In this document: piece after piece, positions 9,488-18,552 of the stretch
Layout of the letters: every line of letters starts with the position of its first letter
Numbering within the stretch: the stretch's first letter is position 1
DNA from: Escherichia phage sortkaff
Length of the DNA stretch: 42,446 nt
Sequence record: MN850581.1
Reading direction: 5' to 3' (one strand)
Made by a program: the position numbers and the translations under genes
Notes under the pieces: model-generated
The model's database searches: none
What the model was told of the DNA's origin: nothing
Seen by the model: only the letters and a program-made list of their open reading frames with translations

Positions 9488-9513
9488 TCAGCGCCTTAAC
9501 ATTCGATCGATAT

Positions 9514-9540
9514 GGAGCCTTTGCGGCTCCATTTTTTTTC
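9514..9540 (+). terminator. rho-independent terminator
   Basis: Stem GGAGCC-tttgc-GGCTCC followed by ATTTTTTTT. Confidence 0.7.
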
Positions 9541-10926: not shown

Positions 10927-10949
10927 GGGGCCTTGCGGCCCCTTTTTTT
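10927..10949 (+). terminator. rho-independent terminator of the lysis operon
   Basis: GGGGCC-ttgc-GGCCCC followed by T7; the T-tract overlaps the stop of the convergent Ig-like gene. Confidence 0.75.
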
Positions 10950-11949
10950 ATGCGGTGACGGTGAGAGCGCAAGCCGTGGAGGTTGCAGTCTTTCCGCCCG
11001 CGTCAGTAACGCGGCAAGTGTAGGATCCTGCGTCGCCAGACGCCGCTCCGGTTTTCGTGAACGTGGCCGACGTTGCGCCGGAAACTGCTACGCCATCCTT
11101 AAGCCACTGATAGGTTAACGGGGCTACGCCGCCGGAAGCCTGCACAGGGCCGATCGAGATATTGCCACCAGTAGCGACGGAGGACGTCGCCGGGGGCTGC
11201 GTCGTAAACGCCGGGAGCGTGTTTAACGTCACGGCGCAAGCCTGAGACGTAACGGAGCCTTGCGGCACGGCGCTGTCCTTCACAATACACGTATACGTCG
11301 CATTGTCCCCGGTCGCGGCGGTTTTGGTATACGTGGCCGCCGTGGCCCCGGCGATGTTTACGCCGTTTTTCTGCCACTGGTAGGAGTACGGCGCGAGGCC
11401 GCCAGCCGCTGCGACGGTCAGCGTCAACGGGTCGCCGATGTAGACGGCTTTAGTCGGCGTCAGGTTGGTAGAGAGGGACAGGGCGACTTTGAGGCGGATC
11501 CGCTGGGAGTCCTTCGTCTGGCCCTGGCTGTCCGTCACGGTCACGTAATAGTCGCCGTTGTTGCTCGCCTGGTAGTTGGCGATCGCATAGCTCGGCGAGT
11601 TGGATCCGACGTTAACAGTCGTCCCGCCGGAGACTTTCTTCCACTGGTAGGACAGCGGAGCGATCCCCCCAGAGGCGGCGACGGTCAGCGTCTGCGTTGC
11701 GCCAGCCGCGACGAAGGTCGATCCGGCATCACCGCCAGCCACGCCGGGGAGGTCCTGCGTAAACACGATCGGAGGTAGCAGGTTCGGATCGTACTCGATG
11801 TAAAACATTTTCGTGGGGTCGAGGTTAGTCGGGTCAGCGTCTAACCAGATAAGATCTTTTTGCGGAGTCGCGCCGCTGGCCGGATCCTCGATCCGGGTGA
11901 CTTTCCAGCCCAGCAAGTCCGGGCGGTAGTAGCGATGCCAGTAACCCAT
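10948..11949 (-). CDS. protein with three tandem bacterial Ig-like domains after a 95-aa N-terminal domain
   Basis: 333 aa; three repeats of about 80 aa each containing P(L/Y)(S/T)YQW(K/Q/L)K and Y(Y/T)(V/C) motifs typical of Ig-like folds; RBS GAGGA; bounded by terminators on both sides. Confidence 0.8.
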   Translation of the reverse strand: MGYWHRYYRPDLLGWKVTRIEDPASGATPQKDLIWLDADPTNLDPTKMFYIEYDPNLLPPIVFTQDLPGVAGGDAGSTFVAAGATQTLTVAASGGIAPLSYQWKKVSGGTTVNVGSNSPSYAIANYQASNNGDYYVTVTDSQGQTKDSQRIRLKVALSLSTNLTPTKAVYIGDPLTLTVAAAGGLAPYSYQWQKNGVNIAGATAATYTKTAATGDNATYTCIVKDSAVPQGSVTSQACAVTLNTLPAFTTQPPATSSVATGGNISIGPVQASGGVAPLTYQWLKDGVAVSGATSATFTKTGAASGDAGSYTCRVTDAGGKTATSTACALTVTA

Positions 11950-12024
11950 AATTTTGTCCTCGTGGTGTGGCCGTGGTATAGTTCCCCGGCATTGTAGATC
12001 ATCTTTGGGCCGTAAACGAAAGGA

Positions 12025-12051
12025 GCCGCTTTTTAAGCGGCCCTTTTTTTT
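12025..12051. terminator. bidirectional hairpin terminator
   Basis: Stem GCCGCT-tttta-AGCGGC. Plus strand: followed by CCTTTTTTTT. Minus strand: hairpin follows the stop of the 33-aa ORF and is followed by a U-rich stretch. Confidence 0.6.
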
Positions 12052-12151
12052 ACAGTGCTAATGATACGGCGTAACCAATTGCGGCCCATGCTGCCGCGCT
12101 GGCGGCGATTACGGCCCAGATTACATAGCGGTGTCCGCGTAAGTCTTTCAT
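12050..12151 (-). CDS. putative 33-aa single-TM peptide
   Basis: MKDLRGHRYVIWAVIAASAAAWAAIGYAVSLAL; ATG overlaps the upstream stop (ATGA); immediately followed by a terminator. Not listed in the ORF track because it is short. Confidence 0.4.
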   Translation of the reverse strand: MKDLRGHRYVIWAVIAASAAAWAAIGYAVSLAL

Positions 12152-13380: not shown

Positions 13381-13410
13381 ATAAAAGAGAAAAGGCCCCG
13401 GAGTGGGGCC
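13381..13410 (-). terminator. rho-independent terminator after the Dam operon
   Basis: Minus-strand stem GGCCCC-actcc-GGGGCC followed by UUUUCUCUUUUAU. Confidence 0.7.
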
Positions 13411-13415
13411 TGAGA

Positions 13416-14752: not shown

Positions 14753-15453
14753 TTAAATCAGGCTTTTGCCTGCGTACATCATTTCGGTAAGCGTTACGTA
14801 TTCCGTCTTGATCTCGCCGCGCTTGCGGGGCTTGATCAGGAATAAAACGGACGACTTCGCATTTTTGCCGCCAGGTTCCCCGGTCACGGCATCCACAAAC
14901 GCCACGCGCCCGGACGTCTCGCCGTCGCTGGTGATGTGGACAATGACGGACGCATGATCCAGCGCTTTCTTAAACCAGGCCGTAGAGGCGTCGGAGTTCA
15001 CGAGGAGGACCGTCGAGACGCCGCGCGTCTTTGCCTGCTCGATCGCTTTGGTCACAAACGGCATCGGCTCCGCGTATGGTGGGTTACACCACGCCAGCCC
15101 GTTCTCCGCGCCCCAGTTCACTTCGTCGCGGAGGGCGTTCGTCTCCTGTCCAGATAGCAGGCGCACAGGGCGTTAATCTTCTCGGCGGCCACGTCGATCC
15201 CAAACTCGCCGAAACGCTTACGCGCCCAGGCGAAAAGCCACTCCGGCGTCCGCCACTTCTGGCGCACTTTGTCCGGCGTCTTGCTGCCTTTGAAACGGCG
15301 ACCGCTCACGCGGTTCTCGTCGTCGGCCATGATCTCGTTAGTCGCTTTCTGGCCGATGGCCGCGAGCTGGGTCATAACGCCGGGGGCCACGCCATGCTCC
15401 GCGCCTGCCTGCTCCAGCATTTCGATCGTGCTCTTGTCGTTCTCGTATTTCAT
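14753..15453 (-). pseudogene. dam: phage Dam-type DNA N6-adenine methyltransferase (NPPY motif), interrupted by a frameshift
   Basis: N-terminal part (15118..15453, ...WRTPEWLFAWARKRFGEFGIDVAAEKINALCACYL) and C-terminal part (14753..15166, ...NWGAENGLAWCNPPYAEP...) lie in frames offset by one base. Frame switch must fall between plus 15121 and 15171; no slippery heptamer seen. Confidence 0.65.
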
Positions 15454-15483
15454 TGGATTATCCTTTGTTGGTGGATCGCAATT

Positions 15484-15512
15484 AACATAATGGAAGCGTG
15501 ATTTTATTTCAA
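15484..15512 (-). promoter_or_regulatory. sigma70-like promoter for the Dam operon (-35 TTGAAA, 17-bp spacer, -10 TATGTT) with ATCACGCTTCC in the spacer
   Basis: Minus-strand reading TTGAAA-taaaATCACGCTTCCat-TATGTT-aATTGCG; closely matches the promoter at 2220..2248; RBS AAAGGA before the Dam ATG. Confidence 0.45.
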
Positions 15513-15592
15513 GAGGAAAATGTGATTTACTTGTGCTGTCTCTTTCCTTCGTCGGAAAAAATTAGCGCCCGCTGGTATCGGTCGCGCCCATT

Positions 15593-15618
15593 GGCCCCTC
15601 GTGCGGGGCCTTTTTTTT
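15593..15618 (+). terminator. canonical rho-independent terminator oriented for plus-strand transcripts
   Basis: GGCCCC-tcgtgc-GGGGCC followed by T8. The T-tract overlaps the primase stop codon on the opposite strand; no plus-strand gene is evident upstream. Confidence 0.55.
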
Positions 15619-16429
15619 ACCCAAACGCGCCGCAATAGTCAGCGCCCCAGCAAGCCCTCCCCGTCCGCTCGTGCCGATACATCCAGATCTCGTCCGGGTC
15701 AGTCGCCACCATGCGAAGCTCCCGATCGCCCTCATACTCCAGCGCCACCTCGACGGCATTACCCGGCGTAAACGTCAGCCAGACCTCGGCCCCTGTCCGC
15801 GCGGCCACCTTTGCAGCATGGCCGGGATCGGCCACCAGATAAGCCGTCTTGCCCTCGGCGACTGGGTGGATCAGGCCGTAGGATCCCCACGTCGGGCCGC
15901 CTGCTGCAAACGTCACGGAGCGGTCAGGCGCTATCTTCGCCACATTGCAGGGCGATCCCCCCAGCGCACGGAAGCACGGCACATACAGGAAGCCGCCGCG
16001 CATGGTCCCTTTGCTCATGATCAGCTCGACCTCCTCCGGCTTGAGGCTCCAGTCCTCGCGGGGCCGCTGCTGCATGGCTGCGAATTTCTTCGCCTCTTTG
16101 ACGATGGTTTCCCGCTTCTCCGGGGTGAGTCCGCCGATCCAGTCGCCCAGGTCGTTGATCGCCTCGTTGAATGGCTGGTTACGGGAGGCCATAAACCAAA
16201 ACATCCCATCACGCGCGCCGCCACACGAGCCGGAGCAATACGCGAAGCCGTCCCGGCGTTTTTCCTTGTCCTTGTGGCCCCAGCGGAAACGGTCGTTTCC
16301 TCCACATATCGGGCATGGTTGATGCCGCCCCTTGAATATGGCGCGGTCCCAGCCGCACAGCTCGATCAGGACTTGCTCCCATTTGTCCGGCATGGCGGCC
16401 AGTACATCCTCTTTTTTATAAATTGCCAT
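15617..16429 (-). CDS. DNA primase (zinc-ribbon plus TOPRIM-like domain)
   Basis: 270 aa; T7/P4-type primase zinc ribbon CPICGGNDRFRW ... YCSGSCGG; downstream acidic motifs (VAEGKTAYLVADPG, ATDPDE) consistent with TOPRIM; RBS GGAGGA. Confidence 0.7.
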   Translation of the reverse strand: MAIYKKEDVLAAMPDKWEQVLIELCGWDRAIFKGRHQPCPICGGNDRFRWGHKDKEKRRDGFAYCSGSCGGARDGMFWFMASRNQPFNEAINDLGDWIGGLTPEKRETIVKEAKKFAAMQQRPREDWSLKPEEVELIMSKGTMRGGFLYVPCFRALGGSPCNVAKIAPDRSVTFAAGGPTWGSYGLIHPVAEGKTAYLVADPGHAAKVAARTGAEVWLTFTPGNAVEVALEYEGDRELRMVATDPDEIWMYRHERTGRACWGADYCGAFG

Positions 16430-16497: not shown

Positions 16498-18552
16498 ATG
16501 GTAGAGACACTGGAGCGCCAGATAGCGGCGATCGACAAAGACGCCATACTCCGCGCGCTGGGCGACTTGCCCGTGACTCCATACGATCATCAGTTCGTAG
16601 CGTATGAGGCTTGTCAGCAAGCTATCCGCAAATATCCCGGCCCGGTTATTGTGGATGCCGCCGTTTCTGCGGGTAAGACAATCATGATCGCCATGCTGGC
16701 GCGCCGGATCCGCGATCTCGGCTATCCGGCCATGATCCTGTCCCGTCAGGCGGAGATCATCGATCAGGACCATGAGGAGCTGAAAAACTTCCAGGTGTGG
16801 TCCTCGATCTACTGCGCGGGCATCAATAACACGAAGTCGAACAAATTCCCGATCATCGTCGGCTCGGAGGGTACGGTGATCGGCGGCATTAAGCCAGGCG
16901 AAAAGCTGGCGAACTATGCGCCGCTGTTCCTGCTGATCGATGAATGCCATCACGTCAACATAGAGGACCTGATCCGCTCTGAAAATCGCAAGGTCCCGGA
17001 GTACCTGGTGGAGAATGGGGCCTATGTGCTGGACGAGTTCGGCGAAAAGGTTCAGGTAGGGGAGCACGTCGGCGAGACTTACGAAGAAATGATCGAGAGT
17101 GGCCGCGCCGCCTATACGATCATCATTCGCACTTTTCAGGAGCGATGCCGCCGCGTCCACGGTAAGGAGCTGCGGATCATCGGTTACACCGGGACGCCTT
17201 ACCGGGGCTGCGAGTCCATCATCCAGCCGGACCTTAAGGAGCCGGGATTCTGGCGTAAGAAGGTATGCGAGATCTCTACGGAATACCTTGTAAGCGTCGG
17301 CGCTGTCGTCCCGACACGCTTCGGGATCTCCGATCTCCGGTACGACCTGAGCCAGTGGCGATCGACGGGCGAGGAGGGGATCAAGGAGTTTTCCGACGCT
17401 GATATGAAAGCGATGGAAGCCGCGATCCACAAGGACAAAAAGCTAACACAAAAAATCATGGCGGAAGTGTACGCCATCACTGAAAACCGTAACGGGGTGC
17501 TGGTGACGTGCGCCGGGGTCCGCCACTGCAAAGAGGCCGCCGCCGCGCTGCCGGAGGGGACGCCGTTCGCCATCATCACGGAGGACACGACGCCGCGCAA
17601 ACGCCGCGAGATCCTCAAAGATGCCAATACGGGCAAAATAAAATTCATCTTCCAGGTTAACGCGCTCACGACGGGCGTCAACGTGCCTTTCTGGGACACG
17701 TCGGTGATCCTGCGTAAGATTGGCTCCCTCACCCTGTTAACCCAGCTCTTAGGCCGTGGTATGCGTATTCTTAAGCCGTTCCATCTGGCCGCCGGGTACA
17801 CGAAAGAGGATCACCTGGTACTCGACTACGCCGGGACGCTCGACGAGCTGGGATCGTTGTACTTCTCCCCGCTGCTGGAGGCTTACCAGCATAACGCCGA
17901 CGAGAGCAAGGGTAAGCTGGTTCAGCGCTGCCCGAAATGTTACGCGGCTGGCCGCACGGTCATGAATGGCGAACATGCCCGCCGTTGCCGCTGGGTGGAT
18001 CCTGATACGAAAATCCGATGTGACCACTTTTTCACGTTCATAACCTGCGACGACTGGAAGGACTCCAGCGGGAAGATCGTCACGCAAAAAGGCTGCGGCG
18101 CGAAAAATGACATTGTGGCCCGCATCTGCCGCTGCTGCGGTAATAGCCTTGTGGATCCGAATGAAAAGCTATCACACACGGCATACAGCAAAGATGATTA
18201 TTGCACGGTCCGCGATTTCAGGATCGAGCCAGCGCGAGGCCGTAATGGCAACGATACGGGCGGCGTGGCTTTCCGGTACGTTCTGGAGCGTGACGGCGTG
18301 GAGTTTATCGCGTGGCAAGTGTTCTGGCCGGGTAGCGATTCCCCCCAGGCGCGCAAGGAGTGGCTACATAACGCGGTCAATAAGCACGTACTGGACGGAA
18401 GCATGAGAAAACAGATCAAGGAGTGCCGGACGGTCGGCGCTGTCATGAGTTACGCCGGGTACTTTATGCGCCCGCTCAAAGTGACTCACCGCAAGATCGG
18501 CAAGGGTAAAGACGTTATTTCGAACAAAATTTTTCTGAATGAGGACTTTTAA
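16498..18552 (+). CDS. superfamily-2 DNA helicase (DEAH-box) with C-terminal Cys-rich zinc-finger-like region
   Basis: 684 aa; Walker A DAAVSAGKT, DEAH box LLIDECHH, C-terminal CPKC ... C ... CRCC cluster. Confidence 0.8.
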   Translation: MVETLERQIAAIDKDAILRALGDLPVTPYDHQFVAYEACQQAIRKYPGPVIVDAAVSAGKTIMIAMLARRIRDLGYPAMILSRQAEIIDQDHEELKNFQVWSSIYCAGINNTKSNKFPIIVGSEGTVIGGIKPGEKLANYAPLFLLIDECHHVNIEDLIRSENRKVPEYLVENGAYVLDEFGEKVQVGEHVGETYEEMIESGRAAYTIIIRTFQERCRRVHGKELRIIGYTGTPYRGCESIIQPDLKEPGFWRKKVCEISTEYLVSVGAVVPTRFGISDLRYDLSQWRSTGEEGIKEFSDADMKAMEAAIHKDKKLTQKIMAEVYAITENRNGVLVTCAGVRHCKEAAAALPEGTPFAIITEDTTPRKRREILKDANTGKIKFIFQVNALTTGVNVPFWDTSVILRKIGSLTLLTQLLGRGMRILKPFHLAAGYTKEDHLVLDYAGTLDELGSLYFSPLLEAYQHNADESKGKLVQRCPKCYAAGRTVMNGEHARRCRWVDPDTKIRCDHFFTFITCDDWKDSSGKIVTQKGCGAKNDIVARICRCCGNSLVDPNEKLSHTAYSKDDYCTVRDFRIEPARGRNGNDTGGVAFRYVLERDGVEFIAWQVFWPGSDSPQARKEWLHNAVNKHVLDGSMRKQIKECRTVGAVMSYAGYFMRPLKVTHRKIGKGKDVISNKIFLNEDF

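Follow-up and report, generated by a model that had tools for sequence, protein, structure and literature searches.

A plus-strand intrinsic terminator conserved at the primase stop codon of Sortsnevirus and related podoviruses: candidate 3′ end of a short antisense transcription unit

INTRODUCTION

What does an intrinsic terminator end when the genes on both sides of it are read from the other strand? The question is raised by the genome of Escherichia phage sortkaff (MN850581.1), in which a G-C hairpin followed by a T8 tract stands in plus-strand orientation between primase and dam, both of which are encoded on the minus strand. The stretch of DNA analysed here, called the window, is 42,446 nucleotides long and represents almost the whole genome of this podovirus of the genus Sortsnevirus (~42 kb, ~59% G+C); Klebsiella phage vB_KpnS_IME279, of the same genus, shares 98.6% identity with it over the 1.8 kb tested. 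The early-gene block of the minus strand is arranged in the order primase, a 163-bp gap, dam, a RusA-like gene and a second methyltransferase, and the primase-dam block is divergent from a plus-strand helicase operon that begins at 16498. At one edge of the gap stands the dam ATG (reverse complement of 15451-15453), at the other the primase TAA (reverse complement of 15617-15619).

Promoters and terminators go unmentioned in the papers found on these phages. An earlier note on this DNA had described the hairpin as a canonical plus-strand terminator with no plus-strand gene upstream, and had proposed that it ends a short plus-strand RNA or blocks antisense read-through; these are still the two leading readings. 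In this study, we examine the anatomy of the terminator, its conservation in close and distant relatives, and the candidate promoters from which a plus-strand transcript could reach it. The features of the locus are collected in Table 1, where the terminator hairpin is called hp1 and a second hairpin in the gap hp2.

TABLE 1 Features of the primase-dam region of the window
Feature	Position	Strand	Description
dam gene	14753..15453	−	
Primase-dam gap	15454-15616		163 bp between two minus-strand genes
TAACATA, symmetric −10 region	15483..15489	both	Minus strand TATGTT (dam −10); plus strand TAACAT (15483-15488)
dam promoter TTGAAA-17-TATGTT	15484..15512	−	12.8 bits, fourth best in the window (PWM)
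TGTGATTTA	15521..15529	+	Degenerate counterpart of TGCTATNNN, from alignment with Murrayvirus GTGCTATTT
TGTCTCTTTCCTTC	15537..15550	+	Pyrimidine-rich block; 5′ part of the putative plus-strand RNA
AAUUUUUU	15563-15556	−	U6 tract right after hp2 (sequence and alignment)
57-nt element	15562-15618		From TTAGCG to the end of T8; includes hp1, T8 and hp2
hp2 hairpin	15564..15588	−	GGCGC-GA-CCG / AUACCAG / CGG-GCGCU; dG −9.4 kcal/mol
hp1 hairpin	15593..15610	+	GGCCCC-tcgtgc-GGGGCC; 6/6 G-C pairs, 6-nt loop, dG −12.6 kcal/mol
T8 tract	15611..15618	+	U-tail of the hp1 terminator, directly after the stem
Primase gene	15617..16429	−	270 aa, zinc-ribbon primase; stop codon abuts the terminator

RESULTS

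Anatomy of the terminator

The two halves of hp1, GGCCCC (15593-15598) and GGGGCC (15605-15610), enclose a small loop, and the plus-strand site is listed by the terminator scan, so that sequence, scan and fold energy all confirm the canonical terminator that had been described. The stable G-C stem, the U-tract immediately after it and the conserved pairing are those of an intrinsic terminator. The last two T's of the T8 tract fall within the stop codon of primase (TAA, minus strand, 15619-15617). When read on the minus strand, hp1 has A8 on its 5′ side and AAUGGGCG, not a U-tract, on its 3′ side, as the earlier note had also pointed out, and hp1 could therefore serve as an intrinsic terminator only for the plus strand.

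Under strict criteria (a perfect stem of 6 bp or longer in which 5 or more pairs are G-C, 3-8 nt in the loop, and T7 or more directly alongside), the window contains four sites, compared with 0 in each of 200 dinucleotide-preserving shuffles; a loose terminator scan of the window gave no excess over its shuffles. Runs of T8 or A8 occur only four times in the window, always as the tail of a G-C hairpin terminator. Chance is thus excluded as an explanation for the hp1 terminator. The other three strict sites, at 9513-9539 (plus strand), 10927-10949 (plus strand) and 33466-33442 (minus strand), have the same GGGGCC/GGCCCC type of stem and energies from −12.4 to −13.0 kcal/mol; all three are placed as expected of terminators, in that the first lies within and the second closes the first plus-strand gene block, and the third lies in the late block.

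The absence of a plus-strand gene ahead of the terminator was borne out, since no plausible plus-strand open reading frame (ORF) precedes it and the one present, 15498..15638, runs through it. A small protein encoded by this ORF was rejected on the same ground and on account of indels among the relatives that are not multiples of three, while a mini-ORF over hp2 on the minus strand was rejected because, by the alignment, its frame differs from clade to clade. No ORF fits the putative unit, which is in this respect non-coding. Recoding at the A-run of the primase strand, by frameshift or transcriptional slippage, was ruled out because the stop codon precedes or begins the A-run in most lineages. 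A search of the region of the window against Rfam yielded nothing that reached or approached threshold (isrD came highest, with 15.9 bits against a gathering score of 37), and seven related loci gave no family match; the resemblance to isrD is generic terminator likeness.

Other terminators and transcription units in the genome

The genome has further terminators placed at the ends of minus-strand genes. Inside the minus-strand block, a plus-strand terminator at 12025-12051 (GCCGC-TTTTTAA-GCGGC, CC, T8) overlaps a minus-strand stop codon with its T-tract, and the best sigma-70-like site of the window (TTGTCC-17-TATAGT with TG, 15.2 bits, plus strand, 11954-11982) is found 43 nt upstream of it; together they make a plus-strand RNA of ~60 nt possible. 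This hairpin is probably a two-way terminator, since its minus-strand tail, CUUUCGUUU, is the most conserved part in relatives. An unannotated ORF of 33 codons on the minus strand (12050..12151), encoding the hydrophobic peptide MKDLRGHRYVIWAVIAASAAAWAAIGYAVSLAL, ends at the T8 of the same terminator, and Lumpael has an annotated 102-nt gene at the equivalent place. The plus-strand site at 10927-10950 (GGGGCC-TTGC-GGCCCC-T7) closes the lysis/spanin block, and a tail gene that converges on it from the minus strand (10948..11949) has its stop codon within reach of the T-tract, the two overlapping. There are thus three plus-strand terminators in this genome in which the T-tract is the stop codon of a minus-strand gene. 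On the minus strand, a sense terminator (13393-13411; AGGCCCC-ACUCC-GGGGCCU-UUUCUCUUUU) follows the second methyltransferase and is itself directly followed by a good minus-strand promoter (TTGCGG-17-TATATT with TG, 13358-13330, 12.0 bits), which divides the minus-strand block into at least four transcription units.

Contents of the gap and the dam promoter

The earlier note held that the gap contains only the dam promoter. The promoter is indeed there, with a predicted transcription start at ~15477 and a leader at 15454-15477, but the gap also holds the 57-nt element and, with it, hp2. A GATC (Dam) site at 15474-15477, where the dam transcript is predicted to begin, occurs in the Sortsnevirus clade and not in Murrayvirus, and could permit methylation-dependent autoregulation. 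The dam promoter region also carries two direct repeats 24 nt apart, GTGATTTTA (15498-15506) and GTGATTTA (15522-15529); both are kept in five IME279/Kc237-like sequences, with a variable spacer between them, and may serve a regulator in place of the palindrome found in the sister genera (see below). In the window, dam is broken into two ORFs (15118..15453 and 14753..15166) by a 1-nt deletion at 15148 relative to IME279 (CTCCT-GTCC versus CTCCTCGTCC), in which dam is intact and encodes 233 aa; the split is either genuine, as a frameshift or pseudogene, or a sequencing error.

Conservation in Sortsnevirus and Murrayvirus

The gap was aligned between the window and nine phage records of Sortsnevirus and Murrayvirus, and the 57-nt element was aligned in 12 sequences, that is, nine of those in the gap alignment and three metagenomic contigs. 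The hairpin and a T-run of T8-T9 are present in every sequence of both alignments (12/12 for the 57-nt element). The outer pair of hp1 is G-C in 6/12 and A-U in 6/12 (in the plus-strand alignment, 4 paired and 2 gaps), a switch that is found in Sortsnevirus and in Murrayvirus subclades, and the loop varies in both sequence and length.

The 57-nt element is more conserved relative to the window than is the primase coding sequence: 98% versus 75% in Lumpael, 88% versus 81% in Sortsne, 86% versus 75% in ST231, and 91% versus 89% in Kc237. The left part of the gap, in turn, reaches an identity of only 57-63% outside the subclade of the window. The element is therefore either constrained or exchanged as a module. 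The match in Lumpael, a Murrayvirus, suggests that constraint is very strong or that a small module was exchanged recently, with ~15558 as the mosaic junction; in this phage, the gap beyond the 57-nt element cannot be aligned to the window. Pattern scans of IMG/VR and metagenomes for the element recovered the same small phage group and chance matches only.

The same layout in distant lineages

Searching outward from the primase protein, by tblastn and a scan of IMG/VR, we found the same layout in every related podovirus lineage examined, down to a primase identity of 32-34%: the primase stop codon, an A-run and a G-C hairpin, which on the opposite strand is a hairpin followed by a T-run. Between lineages, the stem sequences bear no relation to one another. 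On the primase strand, Skarpretter and contig L061 (primase identity 51-53%) have A8 and AGCCGC...GCGGCT, C130_2 and STP9 (50%) have A7-8 and GCCGC...GCGGC, Kc166B (32%) has A7 and GCCAGGC-ATA-GCCTGGC, which overlaps the last codons, and contig L062 (34%) has A8 and GGCCCAC-CGAA-GTGGGCC; the Serratia phages Susuwatari and Smarc2 (33%) have A7 (A6 in Smarc2, counting the A's of the stop codon) and CCCGGC...GCCGGG. It is only on the antisense strand that the L062 hairpin closes with C(UUCG)G, a very stable tetraloop. An independent terminator scan called the sites of Kc166B and Susuwatari on the strand opposite primase; those of Skarpretter and C130_2, with long and irregular loops, were not called, and both do fold.

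In none of these podovirus lineages does a sense U-tract come right after the hairpin. T1-like Drexlerviridae with a homologous primase (tuinn, Vc1 and IME347) have an ordinary sense terminator instead (CCCCGC-TTAT/TTCG-GCGGGG in tuinn and Vc1, CCCGC-TTCG-GCGGG in IME347, followed by T6-9), and the KLB16 and Abuela groups have no terminator of either orientation. The retention of the A-run beside six unrelated hairpins is difficult to account for unless it is the T-run of the opposite strand that matters. On this comparison, the backwards orientation of the terminator is conserved across the related podovirus lineages, with the qualification that, owing to shared ancestry, the agreement among lineages is not fully independent evidence. 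The conserved position, orientation and T-tract, the compensatory change in the stem and the complete turnover of the stem sequence strongly support the claim of a working terminator: hp1 with its T8 tract has every appearance of a genuine plus-strand Rho-independent terminator, and there is a high probability that the element is functional.

The second hairpin and the minus strand

The second hairpin, hp2, and the AAUUUUUU tract after it were absent from the earlier note. The loop of hp2 (CTGGTAT) is invariant across relatives, and the hairpin folds better on the minus strand than on the plus strand; in the EC2 group, where the stem is GCGUCG/CGGCGC, one U.G pair of the minus strand becomes a C.A mismatch on the plus strand. 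As a whole, the strand preference read from structure is mixed, since hp2 favors the minus strand, a hairpin in Sortsne favors the plus strand, and hp1 has Watson-Crick pairs only. The U-tract after hp2 is confined to the window/IME279/Kc237 clade and is absent in Murrayvirus and the other genera. In that clade, hp2 and its U6 tract may terminate primase transcripts, and by virtue of this U-tract the locus looks like a pair of back-to-back terminators, hp1 with U8 for the plus strand and hp2 with U6 for the minus strand. Such an arrangement would explain part of the conservation, though not the universal A-run. A long-range helix between the 3′ codons of primase and the hp2 loop, which RNAalifold and single-sequence folds made suggestive, failed its controls: among other 14-mers of the coding sequence and shuffled targets, the fraction reaching the observed duplex energy was 0.03-0.76.

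Candidate promoters for a plus-strand transcript

No plus-strand promoter candidate of at least 8 bits was found by PWM between 12052 and 15600. Among the 14 candidates of at least 5.5 bits in this interval, four lie in 15434-15531, three of them ranking among the four strongest, a distribution that makes it most likely that the terminated transcripts start inside the gap. The promoter TTGTTG-17-TAATGG (15465-15493) put forward in the earlier note is present, but it has G at −7, scores below the 5.5-bit threshold for listing and is not conserved. Nor would a plus-strand RNA be antisense to the dam leader, as had been supposed, because the predicted plus-strand starts lie at or beyond 15495 and dam starts at ~15477, so that the two do not overlap; the sequences to which such an RNA would instead be complementary are the dam promoter region and any RNA that reads through from primase.

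In the sister lineages, an extended −10-like motif, TGCTATNNN, is found on the terminator strand 75-83 nt upstream of the end of the T-run. It occurs as TGCTATTTG in Lumpael (77 nt), TGCTATTTA in ST231 (78 nt) and IME_EC2 (80 nt), TGCTATTTT in Skarpretter (80 nt), TGCTATTCT in L061 (75 nt), C130_2 (80 nt) and Kc166B (77 nt), and TGCTATAGT in Susuwatari (83 nt). Counted as seven sequences in five lineages, the motif has T at −7 in four, all of them outside Murrayvirus, in which the hexamer has G or A at this position. The hexamers of these four sequences (TATTTT, TATTCT and TATAGT after TG-N) count as acceptable extended −10 promoters under established sigma-70 rules, and their motif predicts an RNA of ~70 nt. 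The motif is also the right half of a palindrome, TAGCA-N5-TGCTA, whose left half supplies the TTGCTA −35 of the sense promoter. The palindrome, which overlaps both this −35 and, on the antisense strand, the −10-like motif, has been kept in Murrayvirus, Skarpretter, C130_2, Kc166B (TAGCT..TGCTA) and the T1-like phages, in the last of which it stands upstream of the tail-fibre gene, and it is absent from the clade of the window. It may be an operator for a candidate regulator, a promoter, or both.

The promoter candidates of the window itself are weak. In place of the motif it has TGTGATTTA, which predicts a start at ~15536 and an RNA of ~80 nt and in which −7 or −11 is not consensus; the related PWM site TTTATT-17-TTTACT (TG) scores 7.3 bits, a value that no plus-strand candidate for this transcript in the window exceeds and that compares with 142 sites of at least 7 bits in the window. 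Sortsne is the one phage in which this site is good (TTTATT-17-TAAATT with TG, 11.6 bits). Another possible source is the symmetric −10 region of the dam promoter. The −11A and −7T of TATGTT (15489-15484) and of its mirror image TAACAT are reciprocally paired at positions 15484 and 15488, and TAACAT, if active on the plus strand as we infer from this symmetry, would give a start at ~15495 and an RNA of ~120 nt.

Downstream of these candidates, TGTCTCTTTCCTTC lies partly within a small hairpin, TTTCC-ttcgtc-GGAAA (15543-15558), and has the counterpart TGTCTTTGTTTCCTTC in C130_2 and L061. The order of blocks is constant in the multi-lineage alignment: −10-like motif, pyrimidine-rich segment, TTAGC stem-loop, terminator hairpin and T-run.

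DISCUSSION

We consider it probable, on balance, that hp1 is the 3′ end of a short, conserved, non-coding antisense unit that starts inside the gap. RNA polymerase would initiate on the plus strand in the AT-rich promoter region, transcribe 80-125 nt through the CU-rich segment, the second stem-loop and then the G-C hairpin, and be released in U8, exactly at the primase stop codon. Being released there, it would never run antisense through primase or into the divergent helicase operon. The −10-like motif, the ~70 nt that follow it, the hairpin and the T-run of the sister genera point to an inherited unit with a geometry like that of lambda OOP. In the clade of the window, the ancestral promoter would have decayed, and initiation would probably be weak, from the mirror −10 of the dam promoter, from TGTGATTTA, or from both. 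The RNA might pair with primase read-through RNA and lead to its cleavage by RNase III. The anatomy, orientation and conservation of the terminator can be read directly from the sequences compared here; what we infer is that a promoter and an RNA exist, along with any effect of that RNA on regulation. Counted against such a unit are the palindrome, which could be the operator of a protein and not a promoter, the better folding of hp2 on the minus strand, and the weakness of the promoters in the window.

It is possible, though we hold it doubtful, that the unit goes further and represents a family of small antisense RNAs in Sortsnevirus, Murrayvirus, Skarprettervirus, Hungariovirus and the Kc166B-like and Serratia Susuwatari-like podoviruses that controls primase read-through or the switch from early to middle expression. 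Each member would have an extended −10 promoter embedded in an operator, then a 5′ segment rich in C and U (UGUCU..UUUCCUUC), the TTAGC stem-loop and the terminator, and might act, for example, by exposing the RNA between the primase and dam cistrons to RNase III cleavage or through anti-Shine-Dalgarno pairing in trans.

Next in likelihood after a short antisense unit, and clearly less likely than it, is that the terminator is purely an insulator. There would then be no dedicated transcript and the RNA would have no function; the terminator would simply stop plus-strand transcription arising as a by-product, divergent or pervasive, in the AT-rich dam promoter region or further left, and would spare primase the antisense traffic and the helicase operon such transcripts. 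The bidirectional-promoter geometry of the dam −10 (TAACATA) would provide the source, the uniformly weak plus-strand promoters of the window agree with it, and a T-tract pressed upon a stop codon fits a boundary element, all the more as the plus-strand terminators at 10927-10949 and 12025-12051 likewise abut minus-strand stop codons. However, a simple stop signal has no need of a specific motif kept by the sister genera at a fixed 75-83 nt, of the conserved blocks inside the transcribed part (TGTCT..TTTCCTTC and TTAGC), or of a 57-nt element that is conserved above the coding sequence.

Sense-mRNA and DNA-level roles are less likely than either an antisense unit or an insulator. With respect to the former, the tandem hairpins could serve the primase mRNA as a 3′ stabiliser, as a processing site or, through hp2 and U6, as its terminator; the A-run would be incidental or an RNase E entry site, and the look of a plus-strand terminator would be a side effect. 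The G.U pairs that make hp2 stabler on the minus strand, the AAUUUUUU tract in the clade of the window and the deep conservation of the minus-strand tail CUUUCGUUU at the 12025-12051 locus are in keeping with this. We nevertheless regard it as improbable, as no lineage has a sense U-tract after hp1 and only one clade has it after hp2, an incidental A7-8 would not persist beside six unrelated hairpins, the UUCG tetraloop of L062 forms on the antisense strand only, and the predicted pairing between the primase 3′ end and hp2 is no better than its controls. That the locus acts as DNA, as a replication origin or a primase/helicase loading site and not as a transcription signal, is highly improbable: its place between replication genes, the AT-rich flank with its repeated GTGATTT(T)A (15498-15506, 15522-15529) and the palindromes at the site in sister genera would suit such a role, but the anatomy is that of the other terminators of the phage (GGGGCC/GGCCCC stems, T7-8), the compensatory stem change is expected for RNA or cruciform pairing and not for protein recognition, and nothing among the features examined indicates an origin.

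The terminator itself resembles the intrinsic terminators of enterobacteria and their phages in its 6-bp G-C stem, 6-nt loop and adjacent U8, and it shares energy and stem type with the gene-end terminators of the same phage at 10927-10949 and 33466-33442. Unlike these, hp1 opposes both of its flanking genes and has no annotated gene or RNA upstream on its strand. In bidirectional intrinsic terminators, which typically stand where two genes converge, a single hairpin has an A-tract on one side and a U-tract on the other, as seen by Term-seq. The locus recalls them in the A-run located 5′ of hp1 on the mRNA strand, and in the clade of the window it may stop transcription in both directions; it differs in that hp1 has a U-tract on one side only, that the flanking genes are co-directional, both on the minus strand, and that a two-way stop would need two hairpins, with hp1 serving the plus strand and hp2 the minus strand.

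An antisense unit would find its closest parallel in the oop unit of lambda (pO-oop-tO), which lies between cII and O, produces a small antisense RNA against the pR operon and ends in a hairpin terminator; the overlap of OOP with the 3′ end of cII amounts to 52 bases, and the RNA mediates cleavage linked to RNase III (PMC5869508). Like oop, the unit proposed here would be short and non-coding, would run in the opposite direction between two co-directional early or replication genes, and would stop at an intrinsic terminator where the gene upstream has its 3′ end, with ~70 nt predicted in the sister genera. The differences are considerable. The two have no sequence relationship; the phage studied here is virulent and lambda is temperate; the overlap with the coding sequence is 2 nt of the stop codon (~25 nt in Kc166B) as against 52; and the promoter, RNA and effect are putative here, the promoter being degenerate in the window. 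Bidirectional sigma-70 promoters have been described as having divergent starts spaced by 18 bp and reciprocal −7T/−11A (Warman et al., 2021, as cited in PMC10268837). The dam −10 TATGTT and its mirror TAACAT share this reciprocity, and a divergent non-coding RNA would be expected from it; unlike those promoters, the plus-strand partner has no recognisable −35 or TG extension, and its activity is putative.

Both an intrinsic terminator and an OOP-like antisense unit are of known kinds. The interest of hp1, a modest finding, resides mainly in the apparent sharing of the unit by a whole group of phages, in none of which it seems to be annotated. If the terminator is an insulator only, it would still be a clear case in nature of a gene boundary at which a terminator persists for no other task than halting antisense transcription, and as such of use in phage engineering and in the terminator-based annotation of hidden transcription units. 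If the antisense unit is real, the annotations of an entire group of ~42-kb enterobacterial podoviruses, some of them under consideration for therapy, miss a conserved non-coding unit amid the replication module. It would then offer a handle on how virulent phages separate primase expression from that of the dam/RusA/methylase operon, and would be a lytic-phage counterpart to the lambda oop paradigm.
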